46,463 nt of DNA from Candidatus Poribacteria bacterium (GTDB lineage: Bacteria; Poribacteria; WGA-4E; PCPOR2b), in the NCBI GenBank assembly GCA_047517405.1, contig JAKZSX010000302.1:1-46463 (forward strand). Reading direction: 5' to 3'. Shown here in pieces: positions 806 through 46,463 of this stretch; position 1 is the stretch's first letter; every line of letters begins with the position of its first letter. The notes under the pieces are model-generated. The model saw nothing but the letters and a program-made list of their open reading frames with translations. It was not told where the DNA came from and did no database searches. The position numbers and the translations under genes were made by a program.

Positions 806-864
806 GGCTTGGAAATTTCCAATGAACTATATAAGTGTGTTAGCAAAAATCACCATCAAAAGGC

Positions 865-893: not shown

Positions 894-1012
894 AGCACCC
901 ATTCAATCCGGTTTTTTTAATAAAAGATCGAAATCTGTCAAAATTTTTGAACGATTCTTGAGGCTGAGTTGTCTAAAAGAGTTGAGGGCAGCAAAATCAG
1001 GGAGAAAGTGCT

Positions 1013-1600: not shown

Positions 1601-1688
1601 CACAAAAAGTAACTGAAACCGTACAACAAGTATATCTAGGTTGTCGTGTGGTTTATCCTAGCAATGATAAAAACATAATGGGGAAAAC

Positions 1689-2660
1689 ATGAAACCTCAA
1701 TGTCGTTCAATTCAACGGTGCTTGTCTGATTATATAGATTATACACTTTCAGGTCGGCAAACCATGATCGTAGCTCAACATCTGCGATTTTGTCAGGATT
1801 GCCAACTCGAATTGGAATCTTTGAGGCGAATAAAGGTACTGCTTCATTTTCATGTCCCTTCACAACCCCCAGAAGGTTATTATGATCGATTTGGGGGGCA
1901 GCTGCAGCGGATAATCGAAGAGCGTCCTCGTCCTATATGGTGGGGTGCGACCGTGCTTGCGCAATCAGTCACGTGGAGATTCCAAGAGCTTCTACATCAG
2001 TCTGTTTGCGCTTTCAGCAAGCTAATTGGTTTTCCTATAAGTTGGGCTAAACAGCCTCCCGCCTATGCGTGGAGGCTACTCGCTGTGCTTGTCAGTTTGC
2101 TTGCCGTGCTTGTTAGTCTGTCTACGGATCAATTCTTCCAACCTCAAGAACAGGATCGCCTTGACCCTGCAAACTTGTCGCAGGTCCTGAAAGTCCAGCC
2201 GACCTCTCCCCTGAAGCAGGGCGGGAATAGAGAACTAGTCAGCAACCGAGAATGGTTTGTTGAAATCACACAGACGCTGCCTGAACATGTTGTTCAAGGG
2301 AAGCAAAATTCAGACAAAGAAATTGAGGTTGCTGAATCGCTTGCAGAACTGTCAAGGTGGGAGGGTTACCAGCCAAATCCTGTTAGTGACAGCAGTTCCA
2401 TTAATGATAGTGATGCGTTCAAAGCAATGGCAGTCCATGATGCTCCCCCCGACCTGATGACAGTTGCACAGTTATCAAGTCCTGAGTCGATTGCCGCGAA
2501 AGAGGATTTTTCGCGGCCCTTGGGCGTTGTGGCTATTCCGACTTCAGCGGAAATCGGTTGGGGAGGTAATCGCTCACTGAATGGTGTTGTTGAGATGTTG
2601 ATGAATGTACCGTTACCCAGCTTCTCAATTACGGAAGTTTATGATTCTGTCAAACTTTAG
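1689..2660 (+). CDS. Anti-sigma factor, zf-HC2 type, single-pass membrane protein
   Basis: N-terminal putative zinc finger (C..IQRCLSDY...H-x3-C-x2-C: HLRFCQDC), a central TM segment (LLAVLVSLLAVLVSL), and a position directly after the ECF sigma gene. Confidence 0.75.
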   Translation: MKPQCRSIQRCLSDYIDYTLSGRQTMIVAQHLRFCQDCQLELESLRRIKVLLHFHVPSQPPEGYYDRFGGQLQRIIEERPRPIWWGATVLAQSVTWRFQELLHQSVCAFSKLIGFPISWAKQPPAYAWRLLAVLVSLLAVLVSLSTDQFFQPQEQDRLDPANLSQVLKVQPTSPLKQGGNRELVSNREWFVEITQTLPEHVVQGKQNSDKEIEVAESLAELSRWEGYQPNPVSDSSSINDSDAFKAMAVHDAPPDLMTVAQLSSPESIAAKEDFSRPLGVVAIPTSAEIGWGGNRSLNGVVEMLMNVPLPSFSITEVYDSVKL

Positions 2661-2858
2661 CGATGCTAATTAAACAAAAACAAAATAGAAAACCAACTTC
2701 TGTCTGTATCTCAACAAAAAACTTGTGTTTCCTACGAAAATATGCTACGATGTCTGTGCAGAACGCACATCTGCGTTCCCTAACTTGAAACCCTACTGGG
2801 GTAAGGGGAGTATGTCAATTTAACAGCCTCCTCTAACCATTATCTGAAAGGAGATCTA

Positions 2859-5800: not shown

Positions 5801-7556
5801 TGAGTCAGCCGTGCGAGAGTATCAGTATGTGATTCAGTATACTGATGATGATGATCAGAAGGGACGTTCCTACTTCTCTATAGCGTATGCTCAGGACGAA
5901 CATCTCAAACAGTATGATGATTCGCTTCTCAACTATCAAAATGCGATTCAGCTTTCTAAAGATCCACTCATCCGAGCACAAGCATACTATCGAATGGGTT
6001 TGATTTACCAAGAAAGACTGAATGACCCTGAGAATGCACTGAAAGTATTCGAGACCCTGATTACTCAATTCGGTGGTGAATCTAATACCAGCATCCAATC
6101 CATGGCGGCGGACGGTGGTATTCGGCGGTCTGACCTCTACGTAAAGTTAGGTCGTATGGATGATGCAATCGCTCAAGCAATCGCTGCGCGTGATGCAGCG
6201 CAAACGACTGCACAGAAAGTTTCTGCACAATATAATCTCGGTTATCTCTATTTCGACCAAGCGCGGAAACTCTTCTCTGATAAACCTGGTACCGACTTAC
6301 AACCGTATATTGATGCGAGCCGGCAAGCCGCAACCGCTTATGTTGAATCGGCTAATACAGCAGCCGCCGATAAGATCGATGATACCGTAAGTCCATTTGT
6401 TCAGAACGCGCTCTTCTCAGCCGGGCAAATTTACTATTCGCTCGGTACAGGGATCAAGCTACCTGACGATCTCAATAGCGCAGTTCCGGTGCTGATGCAG
6501 TTCGTCGAATATGCGGACAAGGGGCTTTTCGCCGTTTCGTCCCAAGCGGATGTGTCGAAAAACGTCCAGACCGTATTGGGCTATCTCGCACCCACCTATT
6601 ATGAGTTGGGACGGATGCAGCTCGGTTTCGACGAAGGGTTTTCTGAAAAAACCGTTAGCTTCTTTGATCAGTCTGCAACCGTGTTCATGGACCTCGCTCG
6701 ACGATTCCCTAATGCGGCAGAGGCACCGTTCTGGCAGTATCAGGCAGGTGAGGCGTACTTTGCGGGTCAACAGCACCTGAAAGCCATTGAAGAATATGTG
6801 AAGGTTCGCAACATTAATCCGCTACATGCGCAGGCGGCTGAATCCCTCGCCGCGATTTCGACGTGCTATGCGTTGCTCGAGAAAAATACCGAGGACGAAG
6901 CGGAGAAGGAGAAATGGTTAGCACAGGTCTTTGAGATCAACGAGGTTCTCGCAAAGAACTATCCAACCAGTCCCTTTGCAGCCGAAGCGTTTCTCAACAT
7001 CGGCAACACCTACTATAACCAAGGGGTTTTCGACGATACGACAGAAGAAGACCGTATCCGCCTCTATACAATGGCTATCGAACAGTATGAGAAGGCATTG
7101 GCGGTTCCCAATATCAATGCAGAATCGAAAGAGAATGCCGATCTGTTCCTGCGTGAGACGAAAGGAGCCCTCTCGGCAGATGTGTATATTCAGGCAACTG
7201 CCAATTTCGATCGAGCAAGAGTGGCGCCTGAAGATCAACAGAGAGAAGCCGTTGAAAACGCTATCGCTGGGTTCCAAGACATCATCAAAGCGTATCCGAC
7301 TACCAAATACGCCGACCTTTCTTTGGTGCAAATTGGTGATGCGTATATGATACTAGCGGTTGAAAATGATGAGTATTATAACGACGCGCTTGACTCCTAT
7401 GATGCGTTGTGGGGTAAATACGCGACCGTCCCGCCTAGCGATACACAGGTCAACAAAGCGTTGACATACTCGCAAGGTAAGATTACCGAAATCACGGAGT
7501 ATATGAGAGCACAGAACCTTCCACGTCGTACCGGCGGCGGTGGTGGTGGCGAATAA
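2859..7556 (+). CDS. Very large (1565 aa) membrane-anchored tetratricopeptide (TPR) repeat protein
   Basis: AGGAG RBS and an N-terminal TM/signal anchor. Dozens of 34-aa TPR-like units occur (recurrent 'A...Y....YP.S..A..A.Y..G..Y'). C-terminal GGGGGGE tail. Confidence 0.9.
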   Translation: MNPRLLGILAGVALAVVLFWPAGSSKKVERLYNEAEQLYSQNDYEGAIAKYDEGLEESVKWGVKTEVIDKDFTTLANYKIAVSYSKWAEQSGDITYYDNAIEQIEKVAPNATVPKHQEGLTYLWGHVLYKQEKFELAEPKFHTVIENFPNSLFVENAWYAIGQLNYKLQKYDAARRAYKEVLDGFPNSEFKDDAQHLIAQSFLNEKNYEQAYPEFDKLSTEEFKTFADLQAEASYKAAFCLNQLARDEEAIGRYTQFITEYPTSGYVTAAYFDTGSIYSKQKDYDNARVNYELALQNTDDRDLQAEIQVTIGRTYYEQQDFPNAVESYNTLLEEYPECDFISEAKLGIADSYFKSDVWVEAAAAYQRVLNEHPEETDFIPYVTYQMGESNYKLASDLKDDGQMDVANASYEEALMWYQKAVDEFPADPVASHALYGAIWALNALERKDELETVAREFIDKNRMDSELDLLAAEVQLKFADLKFNDFKQYEDAAAEYAKLWEYRDFPKFHLIKLIGKFQEARSYYEASKPAGYREGDPDAVFNEVLLQNAVNAYQEAVDKFKGPEIMGGESGTFLGGIEQGRYDDFPQRPMQVEACVMNQALSHEKLNAWGKARDLYTAILPGSDNYQRAQLLIAQSLVKEGNNTGAVAHYQSIMDILDTDNRSLAEIKLADLLRSEERFAEAAVEYENVVAGNPTGEYADDAQYLVGLCYYKAAKAAPDDAAHLDKSVAAFEKAIADYPDSPNAVESYYGLALAYRDMALAGNESVWPKVLEVADTAYDKHGGTDNTTVQKTLGHIDLVKATAIEKQGLESEEEKAELIASLRRIVQNTGAPEDARSRAQLKIGHLYYGDGKHGKALAEYQGFVQMFPNNELVTNALYQASVCYYQIGQNNTDEGAKQLAFQNAVSTATQVTESNPDVDAAISSYYTIGLAKYALNDSNGAIAAFRQTTSYEGQTEDKPRQDLIRQAHTRLADLNTAVGDHESAVREYQYVIQYTDDDDQKGRSYFSIAYAQDEHLKQYDDSLLNYQNAIQLSKDPLIRAQAYYRMGLIYQERLNDPENALKVFETLITQFGGESNTSIQSMAADGGIRRSDLYVKLGRMDDAIAQAIAARDAAQTTAQKVSAQYNLGYLYFDQARKLFSDKPGTDLQPYIDASRQAATAYVESANTAAADKIDDTVSPFVQNALFSAGQIYYSLGTGIKLPDDLNSAVPVLMQFVEYADKGLFAVSSQADVSKNVQTVLGYLAPTYYELGRMQLGFDEGFSEKTVSFFDQSATVFMDLARRFPNAAEAPFWQYQAGEAYFAGQQHLKAIEEYVKVRNINPLHAQAAESLAAISTCYALLEKNTEDEAEKEKWLAQVFEINEVLAKNYPTSPFAAEAFLNIGNTYYNQGVFDDTTEEDRIRLYTMAIEQYEKALAVPNINAESKENADLFLRETKGALSADVYIQATANFDRARVAPEDQQREAVENAIAGFQDIIKAYPTTKYADLSLVQIGDAYMILAVENDEYYNDALDSYDALWGKYATVPPSDTQVNKALTYSQGKITEITEYMRAQNLPRRTGGGGGGE

Positions 7557-21235: not shown

Positions 21236-23155
21236 TCACCACCGCTTAAATGCGTAGGTAGGTATACCAGTCACCAATCCGACGATCCCCCAGAGGCTAC
21301 CTATCGTAAACGCGCCCAAGACTAGCCCCAGAAAGAATGGGAACGACCGACGATACATCTGTATCCCGCCGTGCCTGAGAATTGCTCCCTTTACTACCCA
21401 ACTGATAAGAAACGGGAACCACAGGTGTTCAAAGGGTATATACCCCGTTATCGGATAAGCTAGCGGATGCAGGGGCCACCATAAGAACCGTAGCCGCATT
21501 ACCGTGTTGATAAACACAACCGAAGCGCCAATGCCGACAGCACTAAGCGATTGCGGATCCGGTTCTAGTGGACGTACAAGCCACCGCTCAATCACCGTAT
21601 AGGCACCAATACCGCGTCCTTCACTGATACCGCCCCATTTGTAGCTGAATTGCAAAAACGTCCAGAAGGTTATGATGATACCCACGATAACGGAGAGCAT
21701 AATGACTTTCCCAAGTTTGCGGGTATCCATACCCGACCGGTCTGCCAGTTTGAAACTTTCAAGCATATACGGCATCGGATGATTTCTGAACTGTTTCGTG
21801 AACGTCCAAAACGGGGCTGCTGCCGTCAATGTCTGACTTTCGAGTTTACGGCTGCCTACCATCGCTATAAAGAGTTGGAGCGGACCGTAGTGGAAAATCC
21901 CGTGAATCGGGGGACCAAGCTCCGCTCGTGTTCGTGTGTGTGCAAACGCAATGACAAAGTAAACACTGAAGAACGCCAATCCAAACTGAACCGTCGTTCC
22001 TGCTTGATATGAGAAGAACACTAGGAAGCTGATTCCCGCGATTATCCCAAGCACCGCCGTTCTGTACTTCATCGGTTCCCCAGAATCGTCCACCTCCGAT
22101 CTTGCCCCGACAGCTCTTTTTATTACCTGCCAAATCGGTTTCCGTCCCAGCCAGAAGGAGACGATAGCGATTCCCAGATATCCACCAAGGACCTGCTGCG
22201 CAACAAATGGATATCCGGGCATGTTAATCCCTGCCATACTGCCTACGACTCGCTGTGCTTTCCAAAGCAGAAAAAAGAACCAGCACGAAAAGAGGAGATC
22301 GAGCGGAATGGCGAAAGCAAGACCAATAGCGAAGGGATTAAACTGGACAGGGAAGTTGCCCATCGCGTTGAGGGGACGCTCTGTAAAATACACGTTCAGA
22401 TTGTATCCAAGGGGAATCTGGGGAAGCACGGGGTACAGGAAAGTTGTCCCATTAATCAGGTTGATACCAGCGGCTAACCCAAAACCCAGCCAGAGCAGCT
22501 TGTTTCTGAAAAACGGGTGATGTCCGTTGCTCTCACGGCTCATCTCATAAGGCAGGTGAACGAGTGGATAGGTCAATTTCTCCTTCTCAATCCACTGTCT
22601 CCTGATGATGATGCTCAGGCAGAACATCGTAAACGCAACCACCGAGAGAAAAAGCGTCCACCACACCATCGGTTCAAGCCAACCTTTGATGTGAGCTGCG
22701 GTGTAAAATGTCGATTCTCCTTTGTAAAATCCATAAAGTACATGATCGTCATTTACGGTAAGTCGTTGCGATAGATACTTCCAAAAGAGGTTGCTCCAAT
22801 CGTTCTCCGGCGTCGCAGACCAACGAGCGGTGCCTAGCGTGCAAAATATGGATTGGCTAAAATCGTGACCGCTGACACAGACCGCCAAGAGAAGCATTGT
22901 ATAAACGGTCAGCAGCTCCTGCTGGCTCAATGCAATCCGCGGCAACCATCGTTTCAGCAGCATGTTTACCAGGATCAAGGACAGGAAGGTGAAAACCGCG
23001 TTATAAAAGATCGTCATTGTGGTCGGGTACTGAGTATTCCAGACTGTTTCCCACTGCACGACGATGTAGACGTTGATTGGTACAAGTGCTAAGCCGATGA
23101 GCACCGCTCGTAAGGTAACGTCGCCTTTGCTATCATTTTTCGTCGGATGCGCCAT
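21236..23155 (-). CDS. Large polytopic membrane protein of unknown function (about 14 or more TM helices; possibly the DUF6785/DUF6784 type)
   Basis: About 640 aa, dominated by hydrophobic helices rich in W/F/Y. I recognise no transporter signature. The track ORF starts at TTG 23200. ATG 23155 has GAGGA 5 nt upstream. Confidence 0.8.
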   Translation of the reverse strand: MAHPTKNDSKGDVTLRAVLIGLALVPINVYIVVQWETVWNTQYPTTMTIFYNAVFTFLSLILVNMLLKRWLPRIALSQQELLTVYTMLLLAVCVSGHDFSQSIFCTLGTARWSATPENDWSNLFWKYLSQRLTVNDDHVLYGFYKGESTFYTAAHIKGWLEPMVWWTLFLSVVAFTMFCLSIIIRRQWIEKEKLTYPLVHLPYEMSRESNGHHPFFRNKLLWLGFGLAAGINLINGTTFLYPVLPQIPLGYNLNVYFTERPLNAMGNFPVQFNPFAIGLAFAIPLDLLFSCWFFFLLWKAQRVVGSMAGINMPGYPFVAQQVLGGYLGIAIVSFWLGRKPIWQVIKRAVGARSEVDDSGEPMKYRTAVLGIIAGISFLVFFSYQAGTTVQFGLAFFSVYFVIAFAHTRTRAELGPPIHGIFHYGPLQLFIAMVGSRKLESQTLTAAAPFWTFTKQFRNHPMPYMLESFKLADRSGMDTRKLGKVIMLSVIVGIIITFWTFLQFSYKWGGISEGRGIGAYTVIERWLVRPLEPDPQSLSAVGIGASVVFINTVMRLRFLWWPLHPLAYPITGYIPFEHLWFPFLISWVVKGAILRHGGIQMYRRSFPFFLGLVLGAFTIGSLWGIVGLVTGIPTYAFKRW

Positions 23156-23231
23156 GCTTTCCTCAATCCCGTGAACAGTCCGAAATCCAGCGAGAGCCAA
23201 ACCCCAGAATCCACTTGTCTCCGGCTACGCT

Positions 23232-23548: not shown

Positions 23549-24535
23549 ATGAACAACATGAGCAATTTTAGGGTTATCGATTTATTTGCTGGAATTGGTG
23601 GTATGCGTATTCCGTTTGAAAGGTTGGGTGGAGAGTGCGTTTTCAGTTCGGAATGGGACGAACATGCCCAGCGTACCTATTATCACAACTTCGGGGAAAT
23701 GCCAAAAGGAGACATCACCAAAATTGATGAACGGGATATTCCAGACCACGATGTCTTGCTTGCGGGTTTTCCTTGTCAACCGTTTAGCATCATAGGTGAG
23801 AAACAAGGTTTTGCAGACACGCGAGGAACGTTGTTTTTTGACATAGAACGGATTCTTGCAGAAAAAAAACCGGGTGCGTTTCTTCTTGAAAATGTGAAGC
23901 AACTTACCTCCCACGACAGAGGAAGAACCTTCGCCGTGATTCAATCTCGCCTTCTCAATCTTGGGTACACCATTTACCACGAAATTCTAAATGCTCTTGA
24001 TTTCGGCTTGCCCCAAAAGAGAGAACGGGTATTTATCGTTGGATTTCGCGAACCAATAGCTTTCGCTTTTCCTAGAGGAAACGGGGAGTATAAGTCTCTC
24101 TCAGGGATTCTTGAACCAGATGACAGGGTAGACCCTAGCTTATTTGCGTCGGAGAAAATTCGAAAATCTCGTCTTGAAAAATGCAAGGTGAATCCGTTTT
24201 ATCCCTCTATCTGGCATGAGAATAAAGGAGGGAATATATCGGTGTTGCCTTTTTCATGCGCTTTACGGGCAGGAGCATCTTATAACTATCTTTTGGTAAA
24301 CGGCACTAGGCGACCATCAGGGCAAGAGCTATTGCGTTTACAGGGTTTTCCAGAAGATTTTAAGATTGTTGTAAACACTGCGCAGCTTCGGAAACAGACA
24401 GGGAACAGCGTTGCTATTCCTGTTGTTACCGCAATAGCAAGAAAAATGTTGGCAGCACTCAAGGAACAAGAACCGGTGTGGCAGGCGATCGAGCAACTTA
24501 CCCTTTTTGAAAAAAAATCAAGGACTTATGCTTAA
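23549..24535 (+). CDS. DNA (cytosine-5)-methyltransferase, type II R-M
   Basis: All canonical C5-MTase motifs are present: I 'DLFAGIGG', IV 'GFPCQPFS', VI 'ENVKQL', VIII 'QKRERVFIVGF', X 'GNSVAIPV'. A second ATG at 23558 is better spaced from GAGGA. Confidence 0.95.
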   Translation: MNNMSNFRVIDLFAGIGGMRIPFERLGGECVFSSEWDEHAQRTYYHNFGEMPKGDITKIDERDIPDHDVLLAGFPCQPFSIIGEKQGFADTRGTLFFDIERILAEKKPGAFLLENVKQLTSHDRGRTFAVIQSRLLNLGYTIYHEILNALDFGLPQKRERVFIVGFREPIAFAFPRGNGEYKSLSGILEPDDRVDPSLFASEKIRKSRLEKCKVNPFYPSIWHENKGGNISVLPFSCALRAGASYNYLLVNGTRRPSGQELLRLQGFPEDFKIVVNTAQLRKQTGNSVAIPVVTAIARKMLAALKEQEPVWQAIEQLTLFEKKSRTYA

Positions 24536-25593
24536 TGGATAGCCGAACCGCTAAAAAACACTTGGACACTGTTATCAAAAAAGCCCGCATTCACCTTTAT
24601 AAACCTATACAGATTGCAGAAATACTCTACAGAGATAGAACAGTAGGTGACATAGACCTTGATGATTTGGAGACTTATCGAACATTCTCAAGACAATGGC
24701 GAGACAAAGTTTGTAGAAAGTTTCTGGGAAGAACCTCGACTTCAAGCGCACGATTCCAAGACAATCTTTTTGAGGCAAACGCGACACCCCCGCCCATCCT
24801 GAGGACATTAGGAGAGATAAATCATAGACATAAGGGTGCGGTAGAAGCCTACATTTATGAGGCTTTTAGGCAGCGACACGCTCAAATGTTGAGTGGACTG
24901 GCTTTGGTAAGCCGGTCGGACAAAACCAATTTTGTTTTGAAGAATTTTATTGCAGTCTTCAGCCGTGACCCTGGGTTGAAGCGAAGCGTTGATAAAATAT
25001 TTGAGATTGTGGTTTATGCTTTATTTTCAACGCTTTTGGAAGCCCTTGACATAAAAATCGGTATTAGGGTTGGGAATATTGAAAATACAATTTTTCGAGA
25101 GTTTTCGGACTTCACGGAAAAAGTCCTTGGTTTGAATGAAGAAACACCAGAGGCTTATCACACAGCGAAGGTCTATAGGGCTGGCGTAACGAACGCGGCT
25201 GATAGAGGGCTTGACATGTGGGCAAACTTTGGCGTTGCTATTCAGATAAAGCATTTGTCCTTGACTCCCACAATGGCGGAGTATATTGCCAGCGATATAA
25301 CAGCAGACAGAATTATCATTGTTTGCAAGGAATGCGAGAAAGACGTTCTCGTTTCGGTGTTACAGCAATTCGGTAGTTCAGGTAGGATTCAAAGTGTGAT
25401 CACAGAAAATGAACTTGAAACATGGTATGAAAAAGCCTTGAGAGGACAATCAGCGGAACTAATCGGAGATAAAGTGTTGCAAAGACTAGAGAACGAAATC
25501 AAGGTTGAATTTCCTTCAACTACCGAATTTGATGAGTTTTTTACGGATCGAGGCTACCACCAACTGTCGGTTGATGATATTTGGCTTTCTTGA
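24535..25593 (+). CDS. Type II restriction endonuclease partner of the C5-methyltransferase (family uncertain; possibly HaeII-like)
   Basis: The start overlaps the MTase stop by 1 nt (TAATG), and both genes share a lower-GC composition. The 352-aa size is typical of such enzymes. The family assignment comes from context and weak recollection only. Confidence 0.6.
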   Translation: MDSRTAKKHLDTVIKKARIHLYKPIQIAEILYRDRTVGDIDLDDLETYRTFSRQWRDKVCRKFLGRTSTSSARFQDNLFEANATPPPILRTLGEINHRHKGAVEAYIYEAFRQRHAQMLSGLALVSRSDKTNFVLKNFIAVFSRDPGLKRSVDKIFEIVVYALFSTLLEALDIKIGIRVGNIENTIFREFSDFTEKVLGLNEETPEAYHTAKVYRAGVTNAADRGLDMWANFGVAIQIKHLSLTPTMAEYIASDITADRIIIVCKECEKDVLVSVLQQFGSSGRIQSVITENELETWYEKALRGQSAELIGDKVLQRLENEIKVEFPSTTEFDEFFTDRGYHQLSVDDIWLS

Positions 25594-38035: not shown

Positions 38036-38641
38036 ATGCCAGATCTGGACCATGAATTGATGAAACAATGTCAACAAGGGAATATAGAGGCGTTTGATCT
38101 GATCGTGCGCCGAAATCAAGTGCCTCTAGTCAATTTTATCGCCCGGTTCTTAGGCGATCCGGACGCCGCTGAGGACTTGGCACAGGAGACATTTGTTCGT
38201 ATGTTCAAAGCAATCAAACGATACAAATCCGGAGTGGCAAAGTTCAGCACCTGGATGTATCATATTGCTTCCAATCTGTGCAAAAATGAACTGCGAAATC
38301 GGGGACGGCGGGGTCGGTTCTTCGTTGATAGTGTGGCCACCGAACCCTCCTCCGGTTCCGAATCAACTGAAGAGGATCTGATCGCGACCGCTCCCGCGCA
38401 TGTCTCCCTCCAACCCGGGAACCAACTTGAACGGAAAGAACGTGAACATGCTGTGCAAAGTGCGATTTCGGAACTCCCCGAGCGATATCGATTGCCGCTG
38501 ATTCTCCGGGACCTGCGAGAGCTGAGCTATGAGGAAATCAGTAACACCTTAGCTCTACCGCTCGGAACGACGAAATCGCGCATCAACCGCGCACGGCTCA
38601 TGTTAAAAGATAAATTGAGAAGTTTTGTGGAGTCATCATGA
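38036..38641 (+). CDS. ECF-type RNA polymerase sigma factor (RpoE-like)
   Basis: Region 2 ('AEDLAQETFVRMF', 'FSTWMYHIASNLCKNE') and region 4 ('LPERYRLPLILRDLRELSYEEISNTLALPLGTTKSRINRARLMLK'). GGAGG RBS. Confidence 0.92.
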   Translation: MPDLDHELMKQCQQGNIEAFDLIVRRNQVPLVNFIARFLGDPDAAEDLAQETFVRMFKAIKRYKSGVAKFSTWMYHIASNLCKNELRNRGRRGRFFVDSVATEPSSGSESTEEDLIATAPAHVSLQPGNQLERKEREHAVQSAISELPERYRLPLILRDLRELSYEEISNTLALPLGTTKSRINRARLMLKDKLRSFVESS

Positions 38642-39252
38642 ACTGCTTAAAAGCTGAAGAACAGTTTTCCGCGTATATAGAAGATGAATTAGATTATCAG
38701 GCGGTTAGGGCATTTGAAGACCATTTGAGTACCTGTCATGCGTGTCGTCGAGAGTTTACCCTATTCCGTGAATCACTCAATTTGCTGCATCAGTTGCCAC
38801 AGATTGAACCATCGAGGGAATTCGATATCGCCTTACAAGTCCGCCTTGCGGATACCCCGATCGAATCAATCCCGTTTTGGCAACGTGTGTTGCGTCCCTT
38901 ATACGGTCAAACCGGTTTGGCATTGAGTGGGATCACAGTGCTGCTTGTCATGATCGCAGGTGTTTATTTTTATCAAAAAACGCTGATCAAACCGCCGTCG
39001 GTTGAAATCGTTGCAGCACCAGAGCCGTCAAGGCGTGTACCGCTTGCTGAGGAGCGTAGGGTCGAATGGCAGGGGCAGCAACTTCCTTTAGCTATACCCA
39101 GCCGAGAGCTGCAGTCCCTAGTTAATTTCCCAGAATCGCCGACATTTAATCTGCAACCGCGGCGTAGAAGTCAACAACCACAACGGCTAGAACAGAACTA
39201 TATTTTGCAGACGGTTAACTACACAGAAGCCCCTACAGGTGGAGGCTTGTAA
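38638..39252 (+). CDS. Anti-sigma factor, zf-HC2 type, single-pass membrane protein
   Basis: 'HLSTCHACRREF' zinc-finger motif and a central TM helix (LALSGITVLLVMIAGVYFY). The start overlaps the sigma stop (ATGA). Confidence 0.8.
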   Translation: MNCLKAEEQFSAYIEDELDYQAVRAFEDHLSTCHACRREFTLFRESLNLLHQLPQIEPSREFDIALQVRLADTPIESIPFWQRVLRPLYGQTGLALSGITVLLVMIAGVYFYQKTLIKPPSVEIVAAPEPSRRVPLAEERRVEWQGQQLPLAIPSRELQSLVNFPESPTFNLQPRRRSQQPQRLEQNYILQTVNYTEAPTGGGL

Positions 39253-39253
39253 A

Positions 39254-40441
39254 ATGTCCAAAACAATTCAGATACAAAATAAGAGATGCAACGCGCCTGT
39301 CAACGGCTACTCAATTCACCTCTATCATAAGTCACTCGTCCTCGCTATCGCGTTGTTTTTAACTTGTCTCCGCTCTACGATTGCCGAAGAAAGTGTGCTA
39401 CAATCCATGGAGCGTGAGTTTCAGGCCATAGTAAAATCTGTGCAACCATCTGTCGTTGAGGTTGTAGCAACGTGCACAGTTACCGCCCAAAAAATTTCAG
39501 GGAGACAGGGAGCATCGCTAGCTGACGATTCAGAGACAGTCTTCTGCTACCAGAACATCGGATCCGGCATTATCATTGATTCCGCCGGACACATTGTAAC
39601 TACCGCAGGGGTCGTTGAAAATGCAGATGGAATTGAAGTCGTATTTGCAAATGGGGACCGCACACCGGGAACACTCCTCGGCGTTGATGCCCTAACGGAT
39701 ATCGCTGTCCTCTCTGTTGAGAGCGATAATCTGCCCCAGACGAGAATTGGCGACTCTAATCAGATCGATACGGGAGCGTGGGTCATCACCGTCGCTAGCT
39801 CTTATGGACATTCTCCAACGATCTCCTTTGGGACGGTCAGCGGCTTAGAGATTTTACCCACACGACCATTTTACGATGCAATCCGAATCAATGCCTCTGT
39901 CAATCCGGGCAATAGTGGAGGTGCTGTTGTCAATACGTCAGGGGAGATCGTTGGTGTCATCGCAGCGAAGCTGGAAGATCCGTATCTCAAACAGATATCG
40001 CATCTGCTCGATTTAACGTTTCCAGAATTGTCCCAAGGACAAGCCGCGGTGTTAAGAGCCGGAATCCCTCTCGGACCGGCCTGGACCAGAAGCGAAATAG
40101 GCTTTGCCATTCCAATTAACACAGTCAAACATATCGCCGAACAACTGACTCAATACGGTAAAGTCCCTCGCGGTTGGCTTGGAGTTCGGCTTGAACAGGA
40201 ACGTGAACGAACCACTGCTGTTGGGGTCCGTGTTACAGAAGTTTCACAAGGTAGCCCTGCTCATAAGTCCGGCATCAAACACCAAGACGTTATCGTTGAA
40301 TTTAAAGGGAAACCTGTTCGTACATTCCTTGAACTCAAAAAACGGGTTGCAAGTTCCCCACCCAATACTCGTGCTGCCATTAAAATTTACCGAGATGGAC
40401 AATTCCTTCTGCGCGAAGTCGTGCTTGGAAACAGAGAGTAG
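39254..40441 (+). CDS. HtrA/DegP/DegS-like trypsin-fold serine protease with one PDZ domain
   Basis: Catalytic 'NPGNSGGAVVN', His/Asp regions ('GSGIIIDSAGHIVTTAGV', 'DALTDIAVL'), and PDZ 'GVRVTEVSQGSPAHKSGIKHQDVIVEFKGKPV'. ATG 39254 (GGAGG 8 nt upstream) is preferred over 39239. Confidence 0.9.
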   Translation: MSKTIQIQNKRCNAPVNGYSIHLYHKSLVLAIALFLTCLRSTIAEESVLQSMEREFQAIVKSVQPSVVEVVATCTVTAQKISGRQGASLADDSETVFCYQNIGSGIIIDSAGHIVTTAGVVENADGIEVVFANGDRTPGTLLGVDALTDIAVLSVESDNLPQTRIGDSNQIDTGAWVITVASSYGHSPTISFGTVSGLEILPTRPFYDAIRINASVNPGNSGGAVVNTSGEIVGVIAAKLEDPYLKQISHLLDLTFPELSQGQAAVLRAGIPLGPAWTRSEIGFAIPINTVKHIAEQLTQYGKVPRGWLGVRLEQERERTTAVGVRVTEVSQGSPAHKSGIKHQDVIVEFKGKPVRTFLELKKRVASSPPNTRAAIKIYRDGQFLLREVVLGNRE

Positions 40442-40549: not shown

Positions 40550-40578
40550 TTGACAATTTTTCAATAATCTGTTATAAT
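40550..40578 (+). promoter_or_regulatory. Consensus sigma70 promoter driving the cobalamin riboswitch leader
   Basis: TTGACA (40550-40555), exactly 17 nt, TATAAT (40573-40578). Both hexamers are perfect. Confidence 0.7.
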
Positions 40579-40630
40579 CAGTAACGCTTCAAACAGAATC
40601 AAAGAAACATTTTAAAACTGCATATTTGTT

Positions 40631-40805
40631 GATTCAGGTGCCGGCAATCAATGAAAATTGCCGGAGAATAGGGAAGCGCGGTGAAAATCCGCCACGGCCC
40701 CGCCACTGTAAAACGACGCAAAACCGTGTCCAAAAAGCCACTATCCCAAATCAGGATGGGAAGGCGGACAATGTGTTGTCGTAAGCCAGGAGACCTACCT
40801 GAATC
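40631..40805 (+). promoter_or_regulatory. Cobalamin (AdoCbl/B12) riboswitch aptamer
   Basis: P1 is GATTCAGGT (40631-40639) / ACCTGAATC (40797-40805). Conserved core elements are 'GGTGCC', 'AATAGGGAAGCGCGGTGAAAATCCGCCACGGCCCCGCCACTGTAA', 'GCCACT...GGGAAGGCG', and the B12 box 'AAGCCAGGAGACCTACC'. Confidence 0.93.
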
Positions 40806-40904
40806 TGATTTCACAGGGTAGCTTTCGCGGGAAGGCTGTGAAACGGGGTTCTTTGCCGATTCATCGTGCTTGAGGATATTATTAGGTGTGAATGGCCAAC
40901 CATA

Positions 40905-40938
40905 CCCCAGCTTTCAGCGTGAAAGCTGGGGTTTTTTT
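40905..40938 (+). terminator. Intrinsic terminator, the likely expression platform of the cobalamin riboswitch
   Basis: An 11-bp perfect stem CCCCAGCTTTC (40905-40915) / GAAAGCTGGGG (40921-40931), a 5-nt loop, then T7 (40932-40938). It lies between the aptamer and the first gene's RBS. Confidence 0.85.
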
Positions 40939-41001
40939 ATTTTTAGGTTGTAAAACCTACAGCTGACACCACTATATCATTGATGAAAGGAAGGTTCAGT
41001 T

Positions 41002-42279
41002 ATGATACGCAGGTTCACATTCACATCTGTACTCACAATTTTAATTTTTGCCGTCCTGAGTGTTTACGCCCAAGAAGACGTGCAAAATCTAGCAATCGTC
41101 GCCAACACTTTGCGGAAACCAGAAGCCGGTATTTCCCCGTCGCTCTCAATTGTCAATCTTGATGAGCCTAATCTCAGAAAGGCGGTCGAGAATGAGATTA
41201 TTCCACTTGGGTTGGTCATACCAAGCGATTTGGAGGTTCAAGGGAATCTCCTCTACGCTCTCAACCAAGAACCAGACCCATTTTTTGATCCGCGCGGTGG
41301 GTCTATCGAAATTATCAATCTGTTGACCCGCTCAAATGTCGGAAGTATCCCAATTGATGCCGATACCACGCCAAAGCAGATTGCCCTTATCCCTCCCTCC
41401 AAAGCATATGTTACCGGCCTATACGGCAATGCAATCCATGTGGTAGATCTGAACCAGAAAAGCGTTGTTAAGCGCATCCCTTGCGGTCCAATGCCCGATG
41501 GAATAACTATTCTTAACGGAAAGGCTTATGTCGCCAATTCGGCGTATGTTAAGGAGCCTGGCACCTGGAACGTCAGCTATGATGATAAGAGCAACGTCAC
41601 AATCATTGATATAGAGACCGACACAGTCTTAAAAACCATACCGATGCCAATAAACACAAACGGTATTGTAAGCGATGGTGAATCTAGGGTGATCGCGGTG
41701 TCAGCCGGTGTTGGCGAGTGGATCGTCCCCGGCGGCATCCCAGGAACCGTTGTGTTTATCGACGCAGTTACCGACGAAATCGAAAAAACAATCGAACTCG
41801 AAGGTAGAGCGGGGGGACCTGATATTGACAGCATGAAGCGCGTCTTTGTCAGTTCAGGTGGATTGCTCGTATACGATCTGTTCAGCGAACAATGGACACA
41901 CGATGCTGACAATCCATTCACAGATTTGGGCGGCGTGGGGGCAATCGATCAGAATGATAACCTCTATATCACAAGGGCGGATTGGACAGGTGGCAGAATG
42001 GACGAGCTATATGTAGTTGCCTCCGATGGGACGCTGCTTAATACCTACGGCATTGGTCCGGGAGGCTCTCTTGTTACTGTTGCACAGGTCCAATCGATAG
42101 GAGTTGTGGCTGCCAATGTGAACCACGATGGGGTGGTCAATATCCTCGATCTGGTTATCGTTGCGAGCAACTTTGGACAAACAGGTGCAAATCTCCAGGG
42201 CGATGTCAATCGGGATGGAATTATTGACGTCTTCGATCTTGTTCGCATTGCGAAGTATTTCGGACAAAATGTCAACTGA
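41002..42279 (+). CDS. Secreted YVTN-type beta-propeller repeat protein with C-terminal dockerin-like domain
   Basis: Signal peptide (FTSVLTILIFAVLSVYAQ). Repeats such as 'AYVTGLYGNAIHVVDLNQKSVVKRIPCGPMPDGI' and 'NVTIIDIETDTVLKTIPMP'. The C-terminus has a duplicated Ca-binding dockerin motif 'NVNHDGVVNILDLVIVASNFGQ' / 'DVNRDGIIDVFDLVRIAKYFGQ'. AAGGAAGG RBS. Confidence 0.85.
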   Translation: MIRRFTFTSVLTILIFAVLSVYAQEDVQNLAIVANTLRKPEAGISPSLSIVNLDEPNLRKAVENEIIPLGLVIPSDLEVQGNLLYALNQEPDPFFDPRGGSIEIINLLTRSNVGSIPIDADTTPKQIALIPPSKAYVTGLYGNAIHVVDLNQKSVVKRIPCGPMPDGITILNGKAYVANSAYVKEPGTWNVSYDDKSNVTIIDIETDTVLKTIPMPINTNGIVSDGESRVIAVSAGVGEWIVPGGIPGTVVFIDAVTDEIEKTIELEGRAGGPDIDSMKRVFVSSGGLLVYDLFSEQWTHDADNPFTDLGGVGAIDQNDNLYITRADWTGGRMDELYVVASDGTLLNTYGIGPGGSLVTVAQVQSIGVVAANVNHDGVVNILDLVIVASNFGQTGANLQGDVNRDGIIDVFDLVRIAKYFGQNVN

Positions 42280-42297
42280 TGGAGATGTACAAAACGT

Positions 42298-42325
42298 GTA
42301 GGGAACGTAGGTCTACGTTCCCTAC
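42298..42325. repeat. Perfect 13-nt-arm palindrome in the intergenic spacer of the riboswitch-controlled operon
   Basis: GTAGGGAACGTAG-gt-CTACGTTCCCTAC. There is no T-run afterwards, so it is not a canonical terminator. Confidence 0.8.
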
Positions 42326-42378
42326 AAAAGTTTACTTCCCGGATCACTTAACCTTTAATCCCTATCCTTCGAGGCACC

Positions 42379-44373
42379 TTGAATCCTCATATCTGTTACG
42401 TCCCACGCCTGCTATTCTTGTCCTGCTGCCTCCTTTATCTCGCTTGTACGCCGAAAACCGGTGAACAATCCCCGATTTCATGGGGAGTCACCTTTTTTCC
42501 GCTCGGTGCAAAAATTGAATTTGACGCTGCGGTTCGGGAGAATGTCCAGAAAGTCACCGCACTTGATTCGGAAGGCAGGTTAGCGGCTCAACTCGATCTC
42601 GGAGGGTATTCGCGCGGTACCGAATCGCTATACTTTCGATGGGAAAAGGGGGATGCTTATCGGTTTGAAGTAATGTTCCAGAACGGTGAATCAGCAGCCC
42701 AAACGGTGCAGGCACCCCAGACCGATCCGCGAGGGACGATTGAGATTGCCATCCCTTACGGCACGATCGAGGTGGAGAAGACCGCTGATGCTAGTGTTGG
42801 TACGCAACCGGCGCCATCTCAGAAGGCATCACTAGTCTTACAAGGTATCGAGATGACCGCAACCGTGCTAATCCGAAATGGTTTGGAGGCACCTGTCAAC
42901 TTTGACGTTGTGCTTCAGGTGCCGGCATCATTTCAGGTGTTGCCGCACCGCCCAGTATGGGATAGTAAGGTGAAGGGAGTTGCTCTGAATCCTGGTGTAA
43001 TCGGAGAAGATATCCTCTCCTACCGCTCATCAGGAAAATTCACAGTCGAATCAGAGGTTTGGTACAGCCAATTGACCTTAAAAATGCCAGATGAACTGCT
43101 CCCCAGTGACACACAGATTCGTGGGCACGTTTTCTTTGAAAATGTGTTGGGAGATCGGTGGGAACGGAGTGTGACCACCCCATTGCGTTCCGCATCTCTC
43201 GATGAGATTGCAGGGCAACTCCGGATTGAGGGCATTACCATGCCGACAGGTCCAAGCGGTGTATCCGATCCGCGCCAACAACCGGACGCGATTTCCTCTC
43301 CGCGTTCCCTCTTGGGAGGATTCGGCAGATGGCTCGGTGCAAAAGCAGCCTCAATGGACCAGTTCGAACCTATCGCATATCAAACAGTGCACATCCACAA
43401 TGGAAGACAGGAGACTATTCACGCGATTGTGGCATCAATGAACCGCGATACAATGGACGGAGAGCCGGTTCCTTTCTTATCTCCCCCGGACGCGGTCAAC
43501 GCCGGCACGAATCGCAGCCTTGCCTTTGTCAGTTTGACGGGAGAAAGCACTACCCCCGTTCCCCTGCCAATCTATTTCAACCCACTGTCCGAATTATATC
43601 GGGATTTCACCGGGGCAGGGCGTTATGAGCGTGCAATCGAAGTGAAAATTTGGGGAAGTGACGCCACGGTTCTACGCGCCACACGACCCCTGCTGATTGT
43701 AACACCTAATTTCCACGCGATGCTTGTTACGGGCATTGTGCTCGTTGTGACAGGACTGGGGATTGCATTGCTACTCTGCTTTCACCAACAACTATTTAGC
43801 TGCTTTTCAACCAAGCAGCTGATCCTTATCTCTCTGTTTGGCACAACGATATTCATTGCCGTCAACGTCCCATCAACCCTGCTGACCAACCTGATCTCTG
43901 CGTTACTCGGTCCCATCTCATCTCTGGTCACCGGCCTCATCAATGAGATGCTATACTACGCCTTGCTGACATCGCTGCTGGTCCTCCTCCCCAAATTCGG
44001 GGTAATCGCCCTAGTTTCCGCGGTCCGGCTCCTGCTGGGAGGCGTCACGCTAGGGTTGCTCACGCCCACTATACTGCTTCACGTTGTAACCGCTGTACTG
44101 CTGCTCGAAGTCGGTTTCCAGATAGCCCGGAAAATTACTTTGGATTCCGGTGCAATTGGAGGCGCGAATCTGCTGATCTTAGCATTCATATTTGGCTTAT
44201 GTGACGCGCTAACTGTCTACGTTGAATTCCAACTGAGCATGACGCTCTACCGTCTGTTCTACGCAGATTGGTATATTCTGACGCGAATCTTAGTCGATGG
44301 TTTTACTTATACATTTATCGGCGTCCTTCTGGGAAAGCGATTAGGTGCGGGGTTGTGGCGGGTTGCAGAATGA
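42379..44373 (+). CDS. Fusion protein of unknown family: lipobox signal, ~430-aa extracytoplasmic domain, and a C-terminal polytopic (~7 TM) membrane domain
   Basis: TTG start with GAGG 4 nt upstream. N-terminal 'LLFLSCCLLYLAC' has a lipobox. A long soluble region follows. From about residue 440 there are consecutive hydrophobic helices ('MLVTGIVLVVTGLGIALLLCF', 'LILISLFGTTIFIAVNV', 'LLTSLLVLLPKFGVIALVSAV', 'ILLHVVTAVLLLEVGF', 'LLILAFIFGLCDALTVYV', 'ILVDGFTYTFIGVLLG'). Confidence 0.8.
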   Translation: MNPHICYVPRLLFLSCCLLYLACTPKTGEQSPISWGVTFFPLGAKIEFDAAVRENVQKVTALDSEGRLAAQLDLGGYSRGTESLYFRWEKGDAYRFEVMFQNGESAAQTVQAPQTDPRGTIEIAIPYGTIEVEKTADASVGTQPAPSQKASLVLQGIEMTATVLIRNGLEAPVNFDVVLQVPASFQVLPHRPVWDSKVKGVALNPGVIGEDILSYRSSGKFTVESEVWYSQLTLKMPDELLPSDTQIRGHVFFENVLGDRWERSVTTPLRSASLDEIAGQLRIEGITMPTGPSGVSDPRQQPDAISSPRSLLGGFGRWLGAKAASMDQFEPIAYQTVHIHNGRQETIHAIVASMNRDTMDGEPVPFLSPPDAVNAGTNRSLAFVSLTGESTTPVPLPIYFNPLSELYRDFTGAGRYERAIEVKIWGSDATVLRATRPLLIVTPNFHAMLVTGIVLVVTGLGIALLLCFHQQLFSCFSTKQLILISLFGTTIFIAVNVPSTLLTNLISALLGPISSLVTGLINEMLYYALLTSLLVLLPKFGVIALVSAVRLLLGGVTLGLLTPTILLHVVTAVLLLEVGFQIARKITLDSGAIGGANLLILAFIFGLCDALTVYVEFQLSMTLYRLFYADWYILTRILVDGFTYTFIGVLLGKRLGAGLWRVAE

Positions 44374-44445
44374 TATCGGGATTTGCTCGATTCCCTCAAT
44401 CGAAACCTCCTTATCGAGAGGAGAATAACCCATGAAAAAGGCTTT

Positions 44446-44473
44446 TTGACTTACCTAATAGTATGGTTAATAT
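44446..44473 (+). promoter_or_regulatory. Candidate sigma70 promoter ahead of the structured leader of the 44821 gene
   Basis: TTGACT (44446-44451), 16-nt spacer, TAATAT (44468-44473). Confidence 0.3.
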
Positions 44474-44516
44474 TTCTATTTTTTCTTGCGAAGCTTACTT
44501 TTCTTGTGCAGTAGTA

Positions 44517-44678
44517 CGTAGGTTGGGTTGAACGAGTCAAACCGAATTGGTATCAATGCCGATAGCGGTTCAGTTTTTCAACAACACTGTATTTGTGAGA
44601 TTTCACGCTGAATGGAGCGTCGTAGTCAAAGAGGAGCGACTTGGTATGTTTTGTGAGTACCGTTCAACCCAACCTACG
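44517..44678. repeat. 162-nt element bounded by a perfect 18-bp inverted repeat (structured RNA or MITE-like element)
   Basis: CGTAGGTTGGGTTGAACG (44517-44534) is the exact reverse complement of CGTTCAACCCAACCTACG (44661-44678). The arms are separated by 126 nt. The element lies in a 447-nt ORF-free spacer. Confidence 0.85.
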
Positions 44679-44820
44679 GTCTGTCTGGTTACGGCATACA
44701 GAGTATACCTACTACTAGTAACTTAGGTTATTTTTATCTGCGAAAATCAGCGAAATCTGCATCCGTATCTACTTTTAGAACTGAAGCACGAAAGTCCTAA
44801 CACTTTTTTGGAGGTCCTGC

Positions 44821-46463
44821 ATGAAAACACAAAATTTACGATGGAGCATATTTCTTGGTCTACTGATTTACCTTTTCGTTCCAACTCACACAGTAGCGAA
44901 GCCCCTTAAAGGGACTGTTATCTTTACACGGGGTGGTATTGTCATTGAACTGGAAGAACGTCTCAAGAGGACCAATCAACCGGATAGATTACACCCTCTA
45001 CCAAGTTTAGTTATACACGAGGCATCCAAACCTCTGGAGGAAATTTTCCCTGCTTGGATCGATGACCAACGCGCCCTCGCAACGTATGATTGGAAACCTC
45101 AAACGCATTACCACATCGCGTTCCCATGGACTGATGGCAGTCTATTTGAGATAAGCACTACTGCGCCGCTCAAACCCCTCCCTTATCGTATCCGTACCGT
45201 CGAATTAGAATACTCATTGTCGCTGCTGGCGAACCTGCAACGTCCAGCAAAACCGACGACGATTACCTTTTCCCCCGATGGTGAACAACTCGCGATTGGA
45301 ACAAATGCCGGACATCTCGCAATCATCAACCCACTCACGGGGGATCGAATCTGGAAGACACACATCTCCGAAGGTTACGCCAAACACGCAGCCTTCAGTT
45401 CAGATGGAAAGCGTTTCTACATCGGCGAGCAATCCGCTGACGGTTTCATCTATGCCTACGACCTATCAGCCACAAAACCCACACTGTTATGGAGATATCG
45501 CATGGCAGATGACATTGACACCTCAACCTCACAGAATCCGGACGATGTGTACGCATGGGTGCAGTATCCGGGACCCTATCGGATCTCGACAACGGAGGGA
45601 GGAGATCTGCTTGTGGTCGGAAATCACTCGTGGACAAAGGATGGCGTAGGCTTAAAAAAGGCGCAACTCTACCGTTTCGATGGAGAAACAGGAACGCTCA
45701 AATGGAAATGGCCTCCCAATCAGACCCTTCCAATGACCATCAGCTGGTTCGATTATAGCCGTGACGCGAAAACAGTCGCACTGCTCACTTATATAAGGGG
45801 CAGTGGGGAGGCAGGGGGTTTCAAATCCGGCACGTTGTACGTCATCAACGGTGAGACGGGCGAAGCAGCATGGGAATATACCTTCGACCCGCTCAAGCCA
45901 TATTTCGAGGAAGTGACGTTCTGGCGCGGCGTGAGTGCCGCACCCGATGGTGGGTTCATCGATGTCACAACAGATGACGGGCGGGCATTCATTTTCAATA
46001 CGACGCCGGAGCCAGAAGGAATTAAGCCGCTGTGGAATACAAACCTCACAACACCGCTTGAAGTCAGCGGCATCCCAATTATCGCTACCAACGGAACAAT
46101 TGGTGCCACCAACGACTTCGCGCTCTTTGTTACGGGCGACACTTTTATCCCATATCACTTGCAGCAAGGCGCGCAACGGCCACCCTCCGCCCACCCAAAT
46201 GGGATGACCCTCTTTGCTTACGCATGGTCAGGAGAGAAGGTGTGGCAGTGGACGTTGGAAAGTATGCCGCAGGGTTTGCAAGTTGATGGGACCGGACGGT
46301 ATGCCGTTGTCAGCGTGTCCAAGCGCGGAGGAAACGTTGAGGAGCAGTTTCACGGCGTCTCTGTCTTTGATCTCACCGCGAAGGGAGGCGGTCTTTCTAA
46401 GTATCTCTACACTTATCGCACAGAGGGACAGCTCCCCTACGATACCATCAGCATCAGCGCGGA
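44821..46463 (+). CDS. Secreted beta-propeller-like (WD40/PQQ-like repeat) protein, 3'-partial; absent from the supplied ORF track
   Basis: ATG 44821 has GGAGG 6 nt upstream. I translated 547 codons by hand with no stop up to the window end. Signal peptide (WSIFLGLLIYLFVPTHTVA). Repeats such as 'ITFSPDGEQLAIGTNAGHLAIINPLTGDRIWK' and 'AAFSSDGKRFYIGEQSADGFIYAYDL'. Confidence 0.8.
   Translation, partial: MKTQNLRWSIFLGLLIYLFVPTHTVAKPLKGTVIFTRGGIVIELEERLKRTNQPDRLHPLPSLVIHEASKPLEEIFPAWIDDQRALATYDWKPQTHYHIAFPWTDGSLFEISTTAPLKPLPYRIRTVELEYSLSLLANLQRPAKPTTITFSPDGEQLAIGTNAGHLAIINPLTGDRIWKTHISEGYAKHAAFSSDGKRFYIGEQSADGFIYAYDLSATKPTLLWRYRMADDIDTSTSQNPDDVYAWVQYPGPYRISTTEGGDLLVVGNHSWTKDGVGLKKAQLYRFDGETGTLKWKWPPNQTLPMTISWFDYSRDAKTVALLTYIRGSGEAGGFKSGTLYVINGETGEAAWEYTFDPLKPYFEEVTFWRGVSAAPDGGFIDVTTDDGRAFIFNTTPEPEGIKPLWNTNLTTPLEVSGIPIIATNGTIGATNDFALFVTGDTFIPYHLQQGAQRPPSAHPNGMTLFAYAWSGEKVWQWTLESMPQGLQVDGTGRYAVVSVSKRGGNVEEQFHGVSVFDLTAKGGGLSKYLYTYRTEGQLPYDTISISA

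Follow-up and report, generated by a model that had tools for sequence, protein, structure and literature searches.

The 46,463-nucleotide window analyzed here is contig JAKZSX010000302.1 of a Candidatus Poribacteria bacterium (GCA_047517405.1), and coordinates refer to it unless a locus is named. The gene at 42379-44373 on its plus strand encodes a 664-residue membrane protein, hereafter the target, which is probably a corrinoid-uptake S-component of an ECF-type importer (ECF, energy-coupling factor), equipped with a fused extracytoplasmic module and with beta-propeller proteins as partners. We conclude that its transmembrane (TM) domain represents a family of ECF S-components for which no model existed, nearest to YkoE in fold and operon logic.

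Membrane domain of the target protein

The open reading frame begins with TTG, and the sequence GAGG lies 5 nt upstream of this start. We regard it as a real gene because a search of a protein collection returned 290 homologues and because 80 Poribacteria species genomes share its coding sequence with 44-94% identity. The Poribacteria set used throughout consists of the best 80 loci from a search of genome contigs, all of them from Poribacteria species-level genomes. The encoded protein is organized as follows.

42379-42447, plus strand: signal peptide with lipobox-like LYLAC, residues 1-23; all aligned clade members keep Cys23.
42448-43710, plus strand: extracytoplasmic domain, residues 24-444, modelled by AlphaFold2 as three beta-sandwich domains.
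43711-43779, plus strand: extra helix TM0, residues 445-467, leading the chain from the outside into the cytoplasm, where the S-core begins (hydropathy, AlphaFold2).
43810-44370, plus strand: six-helix ECF S-component-like core, residues 478-664 (Foldseek, PF09819 in relatives, ECF context).

The layout of one linker helix plus six TM helices, which had been proposed in a sequence-only reading of this DNA, is recovered by hydropathy and by two concordant AlphaFold2 models, one of the full-length protein (37-sequence alignment, mean pLDDT 74.8) and one of the TM domain alone (pLDDT 77, pTM 0.71). The linker spans residues 445-467 and is followed by helices at 478-510, 512-536, 542-558, 563-587, 595-623 and 630-663. 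Basic residues in the loop between TM0 and TM1 and in the C-terminal tail are consistent with an N-out/C-in topology. Because the ectodomain lies outside and TM0 crosses the membrane, the six-helix core has both ends inside, as in S-components. Residues 478-663 therefore form a six-helix membrane core with cytoplasmic ends and of the size, about 180-200 residues, expected of an S-component.

A Foldseek search with the TM-only model yielded one significant match in the PDB, to 5edl (E 6e-3, probability 1.0, TM-score 0.57/0.65 for query/target, root-mean-square deviation 3.9 A, 195/197 columns). The structure 5EDL is that of YkoE, the S-component of the group-I, riboswitch-controlled transporter YkoEDC (PMC5037267). 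All other hits have TM-scores of 0.37 or less, and the S-components CbiM and PanT match weakly (5x3x_m for CbiM, E 1.1, TM-score 0.34). Seven of 86 diverse relatives also weakly match PF09819, the YkoE-type family, with a best E of 2.2e-4 and with all scores below the gathering score. Together with the ECF-linked relatives described below, these matches bear out the earlier suggestion that the C-terminal domain is S-component-like. That suggestion was to be abandoned if the domain proved to belong to another established family, and assignment as a sensor, protease or flippase was rejected, finding no support in the Pfam, NCBIfam or Foldseek results. Neither Pfam nor NCBIfam holds a model for the target's family, its named members are all annotated "hypothetical protein", and no informative match emerged when PDB sequences were searched by hmmsearch with three profiles of the family.

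Within the target, conservation is highest in the TM domain. Its family-invariant core residues, E577, R625, W631 and Y632, are candidate pocket residues of the S-core, and the polar E577 and R625 lie within helices. The sole conserved cysteine of the TM domain, C608 in TM5, is specific to Poribacteria and is replaced by alanine in 58 of the 86 relatives.

With a profile of the TM domain, 405 clusters (50% identity) were found at E <= 1e-3. Nearly all contain proteins of 500-700 residues with the TM domain at the C-terminus, and the fusion of ectodomain and permease is thus the norm of the family, which extends through Poribacteria, Negativicutes, other Firmicutes, SAR324, Euryarchaeota and a Candidatus Oleimmundimicrobium species. 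Metagenomes of the human gut contain it in abundance, with 5071 member sequences in a single cluster of Phascolarctobacterium type.

Association of the family with ECF modules

A profile of bare TM domains recovered eight proteins, including two (P0271 and P0272) that led to the ECF context of the family. We consider this genomic context of the relatives decisive for identifying the TM domain as an ECF S-component. A set of 80 metagenomic loci was retrieved with non-Poribacteria TM domains as queries. Genes for EcfAA' and/or EcfT (CbiQ) adjoin the S gene in 70 of these loci, which are not independent, many being near-identical human-gut contigs. The EcfAA' gene starts less than 400 nt downstream of the S gene in 65, a propeller gene is present in 56, and CobN is encoded in 22. 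The ECF-type operon L086 reads, in order, a lipoprotein propeller, CobN, the ectodomain-S protein, a 586-residue double ATPase and a 297-residue CbiQ/EcfT. One relative, from a SAR324 cluster bacterium (P0262/P0284, 1204 residues), unites the ectodomain, the S-core and two ABC_tran domains in a single polypeptide, and ECF_ATPase_1 and ECF_ATPase_2 rank high among its NCBIfam matches. Such a fusion of S and AA' parts of an ECF transporter is unusual in itself.

Like the operon of YkoEDC, those of these relatives are under riboswitch control and join an S gene to genes for a T protein and a fused double ATPase (PMC5037267). YkoE, the sole significant fold match, nonetheless differs from the target in being a bare protein of about 200 residues that lacks an ectodomain, the extra helix and propeller partners. 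Its regulatory element is a THI box, not a cobalamin riboswitch, and its substrate is related to thiamine.

Poribacteria depart from this arrangement. A search spanning +-8 kb around the target's counterparts found no EcfT or EcfA gene in any of the 80 Poribacteria loci, nor was one found in the 46-kb window, where nothing besides the operon is related to B12, ABC (ATP-binding cassette) or ECF transport. The module is likewise missing from about eight Poribacteria-type or related metagenomic loci that have enough sequence to include it. These observations, along with the compact and conserved three-gene operon, raise the alternative of a solitary corrinoid transporter in Poribacteria that works independently of an ECF module, like BtuM or solitary BioY, and that owes capture and directionality to the propellers and the ectodomain. 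There is precedent in BtuM, which occurs in an organism without EcfT (PMC6072759). We consider this alternative rather unlikely for several reasons. The TM domain is 35-45% identical to those of ECF-linked relatives, and this similarity includes the cytoplasmic C-terminal motif. Group-II S-components are normally encoded apart from their ECF module, and our search for ECF genes in Poribacteria was local (+-8 kb). Moreover, CbrT alone is inactive (PMC5997447), and the target shows neither similarity to BtuM nor conserved Cys or His residues. The description "solitary" in the sequence-only reading fits the surroundings (+-8 kb) of the gene in Poribacteria, but most of its relatives reside in complete group-I ECF operons.

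The same reading had likened the target to BtuM-type transporters, and this likeness found no support. BtuM is indeed S-component-like, related to B12 and encoded without an adjacent ECF module. Yet the target has no sequence match in the PDB at E <= 10, and BtuM is not among its top 50 fold matches. The Cys80 ligand of BtuM, in loop L3, has no family-wide equivalent in the target's family, C608 being located in TM5 and confined to Poribacteria. A search for conserved Cys/His, which had been recommended as a check, revealed none across the family, and a BtuM-like Cys/His ligand was rejected on the ground that the cysteine is clade-specific. BtuM also has no ectodomain, and relatives of the target sit in full ECF operons.

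ECF-CbrT, a group-II system for cobalamin and cobinamide (6FNP), provides a precedent for ECF-type corrinoid uptake, and CbrUVT, the predicted group-I version of the CbrT system, is linked to B12 metabolism. The target has no sequence match to the chains of 6FNP, however, and this structure is absent from its top 50 fold matches. CbrT of L. delbrueckii is a bare protein of about 20 kDa with neither ectodomain nor propeller partners. A further candidate, Dehalobacter operon-2, was rejected as a different system.

Control by a cobalamin riboswitch

The operon is preceded by the following elements.

40550-40578, plus strand: sigma-70-type promoter-like site, TTGACA-17-TATAAT with a TG extension (12/12 matches).
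40619-40816, plus strand: cobalamin riboswitch aptamer RF00174 (116.2 bits, E 1.4e-28).
40904-40942, plus strand: intrinsic terminator with a 13-bp stem (40904-40932) and a T-run, the likely expression platform.

The aptamer scores above its gathering score, lies upstream of the operon on the same strand and is followed by an expression platform, as expected for a cobalamin-riboswitch regulon. This layout of promoter, aptamer and terminator likely represents a transcriptional OFF switch. Because the promoter, the adenosylcobalamin riboswitch and the terminator precede the operon, its expression is expected when B12 is scarce. The riboswitch that had been placed directly in front of the target is real, but it is separated from the target by 1.56 kb and a 425-codon gene (gene 1).

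The proposed link to B12 is strong and extends to homologues. With a profile HMM (hidden Markov model) built from three riboswitches, and with its results checked by Rfam, 74 of the 80 Poribacteria loci proved to have the element 1.5-2 kb upstream and on the same strand. The exceptions include two loci with insertions (L018 and L017) and two whose contigs end before the site (L045 and L080). Two related loci (L022 and L023) retain the BtuG-like and S genes and have no cobalamin riboswitch by Rfam, even though L022 holds 8 kb of upstream sequence. Among the metagenomic loci, which were surveyed with Rfam and a covariance model built in this analysis, 17 of ECF type have a cobalamin riboswitch upstream on the same strand. 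The riboswitch-bearing gut contigs derive from Phascolarctobacterium and other Acidaminococcaceae.

Two such loci illustrate the company that the S gene keeps. The riboswitch of L124 stands directly before S, after which come EcfAA', EcfT, the propeller, a gene of the ABC exporter type, CbiD, a pair of corrin methylases and CbiG. In L131 it is CobN-ChlI-ChlD, riboswitch, TonB-dependent receptor, S, EcfAA', EcfT, propeller, an ABC gene, ExbB and TonB.

Some of these neighbors suggest a different cargo, namely ions of cobalt or nickel, a corrinoid precursor that is early or lacks metal, or some other tetrapyrrole, in which case the system would feed a chelatase or B12 biosynthesis. Metal ECF systems carry extra extracytoplasmic components (CbiN, NikK and NikL), and CobN-ChlI-ChlD genes are nearby in 22 of the 80 metagenomic loci, with cbi genes downstream in L124. 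The Pfam model that the family weakly matches is named ABC_cobalt, and B12 riboswitches commonly control CbiMNQO-type cobalt ECF systems (PMC13119186). Nevertheless, such a substrate appears distinctly unlikely. The Poribacteria operon encodes a BtuG-like propeller, CobN is absent from the Poribacteria loci, and the riboswitch of L131 is followed by genes for a BtuB-like TonB-dependent receptor, TonB and ExbB. Furthermore, the fold match of the TM domain is to the vitamin S-component YkoE, while that to CbiM is poor. Corrinoid uptake thus remains the function that we favor.

Propeller partners and the extracytoplasmic module

The target is flanked in its operon by two genes for propeller proteins.

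41002-42279, plus strand: gene 1, 425 residues, with a signal peptide, a BtuG-like (YVTN/YncE-type) beta-propeller and a C-terminal dockerin (Pfam Dockerin_1, NCBIfam YVTN/YncE).
44821-46463, plus strand: gene 3, at least 547 residues and extending beyond the window, with a signal peptide, a small N-terminal domain and a PQQ_2/BamB/WD40-like beta-propeller (Pfam PQQ_2).

The order of riboswitch, gene 1, target and gene 3 is conserved. About 78 of the 80 Poribacteria genomes share the three-gene synteny, and 78 of the loci contain gene 1, as many as contain gene 3. The gene 1 product has a plain signal peptide without a cysteine, no lipobox, and a dockerin at about residues 367-423. Its family profile matches BtuG1 in the PDB (8PTD, 8PTF and 8BLW_B) with an E of 3e-17 over 250 residues, followed by BtuG3 (6e-11) and BtuG2 (6e-10), which establishes homology to the seven-bladed propellers of BtuG1-3; the identifiers of these structures were verified in the BtuG papers. 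Because a generic YVTN propeller scores higher, "BtuG-like" is the safe wording for this protein. From its relationship to BtuG we infer that the gene 1 propeller could bind B12, and it is a better candidate for the substrate binder than the ectodomain of the target. With a dockerin in place of a lipid anchor, the gene 1 product might possibly serve this sponge symbiont as a secreted or cohesin-docked corrinoid scavenger.

The B12-capturing surface lipoproteins BtuG and BtuH of Bacteroides are the closest parallel for this part of the system, since gene 1 is BtuG-like and an extracytoplasmic corrinoid relay would recall that of BtuG-BtuB (PMC10404256, PMC6143338). The two arrangements differ, however, in that BtuG is a lipoprotein lid on a TonB-dependent transporter of the outer membrane, whereas gene 1 has a dockerin instead of a lipobox and its partner is an ECF-type protein of the inner membrane.

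Gene 3 is a near-universal partner of the S gene across phyla. Its product is about 30% identical (E about 1e-80) to the propeller encoded in the ECF-type operon L086. The profile of the gene 3 propeller returned generic WD40/PQQ/BamB matches in the PDB and no BtuG. BLASTP detected no match between the N-terminal domain of the target and the N-terminus of gene 3, and a match of only 29 residues between that domain and the L086 propeller. Alignment of the N-termini of target and gene 3 with hhalign gave a weak match (probability 55%, E 1e-4). We tentatively suggest that the two proteins share a small N-terminal beta-sandwich module.

The soluble half of the target had been described from the sequence as some 430 residues without a recognizable motif, and residues ~24-444 indeed match nothing in Pfam, NCBIfam or PDB sequences. 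In the full-length AlphaFold2 model, beta-sandwich domains occupy residues 35-111, 151-272 and 281-441. The motifs IPYG (P126) and MPxDxxG (P289, G294) of the ectodomain are almost invariant across the family. Foldseek matches of the full-length model are all to generic tandem immunoglobulin/fibronectin type III (Ig/FN3) folds (integrin legs, RbmA and WxLIP), none of them informative for the TM domain.

The N-terminus of the target is a signal-like segment (MNPHICYVPRLLFLSCCLLYLAC, followed by T) that ends in LYLAC, which the sequence-only reading took for a lipobox. In favor of this assignment, Cys23 is invariant in all 37 aligned homologues. The tyrosine at -3, however, violates the PROSITE-type pattern [LVI][ASTVI][GAS]C after a signal peptide that we used as criterion; only 9 of the 37 clade members satisfy it, and several have asparagine at -1. 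Lipidation of the target at Cys23 is thus plausible yet not canonical.

The generic Ig/FN3-like matches are typical of scaffolds and adhesins. Combined with the dockerin on gene 1 and the lack of a nearby ECF module in Poribacteria, they could be taken to mean that the protein is no transporter, its seven-helix domain being a membrane anchor or signalling module for a periplasmic beta-sandwich scaffold that organizes the propellers. This is highly improbable given that the TM domain is the most conserved part and has invariant polar residues (E577 and R625) inside its helices, that in most lineages genes for the ECF ATPase and T protein are joined to it or lie next to it, and that no sensor or output domain is present.

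Proposed mechanism and its significance

We propose that the target functions as an S-protein in which a YkoE-like six-helix core is tethered by TM0 to a periplasmic stalk of about 420 residues made up of three beta-sandwich domains. Its three-gene operon, encoding a dockerin-bearing BtuG-like propeller, the S-protein and a PQQ/BamB-like propeller, would be expressed when B12 is scarce. One or both propeller proteins might then capture a corrinoid, be it cobalamin, some other cobamide or a precursor like cobinamide, outside the cytoplasmic membrane. This corrinoid could reach the S-core pocket through the ectodomain or beside it, and the S-core would move it across the membrane by the toppling typical of S-components. 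Energy in most other lineages would come from the dedicated fused EcfAA' ATPase and the EcfT protein encoded immediately downstream, as in group-I ECF transporters. In Poribacteria, where the ECF genes lie outside the operon, either an ECF module may be encoded elsewhere or the protein may act alone. What the data show is the architecture, the class of fold, the operon, its control by the riboswitch and the linkage of relatives to ECF genes; that the cargo is a corrinoid, that ectodomain and propellers pass it on, and how transport is powered in Poribacteria are our inferences.

Several points weigh against this proposal. The evidence from fold comparison consists of one predicted model and one hit with a TM-score of about 0.6, the PF09819 matches of relatives stay below the gathering score, and the target itself has no PF09819 score and matches no curated S-component model in Pfam or NCBIfam. 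No Cys or His ligand is conserved across the family, and the redundancy of the metagenomic loci applies to the counts drawn from them. The best PDB match of the gene 1 profile is a generic YVTN S-layer propeller (1l0q, 1e-23) rather than a BtuG. B12 riboswitches also control cobalt transporters, and the CobN neighbors could indicate cobalt or metal-free corrinoids. Finally, the ECF genes on which the assignment of the relatives draws are missing from the vicinity of the Poribacteria operons.

A broader generalization, which we advance tentatively as a possibility somewhat short of an even chance, is that the family as a whole constitutes ECF-type importers with extracytoplasmic capture by an ectodomain and one or two propellers, one of them BtuG-like, and that the importer has been uncoupled from its ATPase in Poribacteria to leave a self-contained relay of three proteins for corrinoids. 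According to the textbook rule, ECF transporters work without solute-binding proteins, and an ECF importer with capture proteins would, if real, contradict it. A related arrangement is found in the group-I ECF systems CbiMN and NikMN(KL), whose S unit needs membrane-anchored extracytoplasmic components that are sometimes fused to it; CbiN is small and the substrates are metal ions. As noted above, CbiM is a poor fold match to the target core.

Our literature search recovered no description of an ECF S-component with an extracytoplasmic domain, of an association of CobN, propeller and ECF genes, or of B12 transport in Poribacteria. The fused architecture of ectodomain and permease, for which the sequence-only reading knew no described equivalent, accordingly appears to be new, both in its N-terminal extracytoplasmic module of about 420 residues plus extra helix joined to the S-core and in its obligatory propeller partner or partners. 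The loss of the adjacent ECF module appears to be a novel feature of the Poribacteria.

Routes of B12 uptake are still unidentified for many prokaryotes. Phascolarctobacterium makes propionate from succinate via a B12-dependent mutase. If the family does import corrinoids, it would provide a concrete candidate for B12 acquisition by this genus and would add another type to BtuBFCD, ECF-CbrT, BtuM and the BacA-type transporters. It would also include the first S-component to combine a large external domain with soluble partners of its own, in which hand-off is directly testable. For the sponge symbionts, the system points to active competition for cobamides derived from the host or the community. 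A survey of the gut microbiome has called the identification of transporters for B12 and its precursors an open problem (PMC6593275).

Variant loci, spacers and neighboring genes

The spacers on either side of the target contain the following repeats.

42297-42326, no strand assigned: hairpin of a perfect 14-bp stem and a 2-nt loop in the spacer that separates gene 1 from the target, with a terminator-like score on the minus strand; it may act in mRNA processing, mRNA stability or partial termination.
44517-44678, no strand assigned: 18-nt perfect inverted repeat (44517-44534 / 44661-44678, 126 nt apart) in the spacer between the target and gene 3.

The first spacer is 99 nt long. The second (44374-44820) measures 448 nt, compared with ~60-300 nt in most other loci, and holds further nested repeats; it may represent an inserted element resembling a miniature inverted-repeat transposable element, or a structured RNA. 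In L018 and L015, insertions of 4-7 kb part the BtuG-like gene from the S gene, and the operon is thus occasionally disrupted. The downstream propeller gene of L017 (5844-9412) is tandemly duplicated.

A marine variant (L104, 3831-7116, and also L103 and L105) has a TM domain 54% identical to that of the target and is associated with neither a propeller nor EcfT. It is preceded by genes for a single-domain ABC ATPase and for a protein with four TM helices and three CxxCH haem-binding motifs, and no riboswitch was detected at these loci.

The ABC exporter-type gene that comes right after the propeller gene (ABC_membrane plus ABC_tran, 572-585 residues; L124 14469-16187, L131 14440-16197) is conserved in Phascolarctobacterium-type operons and recalls the BacA-type cobalamin transporters. 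In gut contigs from diderm bacteria, represented by L131, the CobN-ChlI-ChlD genes (48-6528) are positioned just upstream of the riboswitch, which heads a full envelope-spanning uptake locus composed of TonB-dependent receptor, ECF system, ExbB and TonB.

Elsewhere in the window, an extracytoplasmic-function sigma factor, a zf-HC2 anti-sigma factor and a DegP-like trypsin/PDZ protease are encoded immediately upstream of the riboswitch promoter (38036-40441), and a second sigma factor of this class is encoded at 1013-1600. A complete type II restriction-modification pair, in which a 5-methylcytosine DNA methylase gene is followed by that of a HaeII-family endonuclease, occupies 23549-25593. The gene at 21236-23200 encodes a 654-residue protein covered over nearly its whole length by DUF6785 and DUF6784 (E 6e-156).

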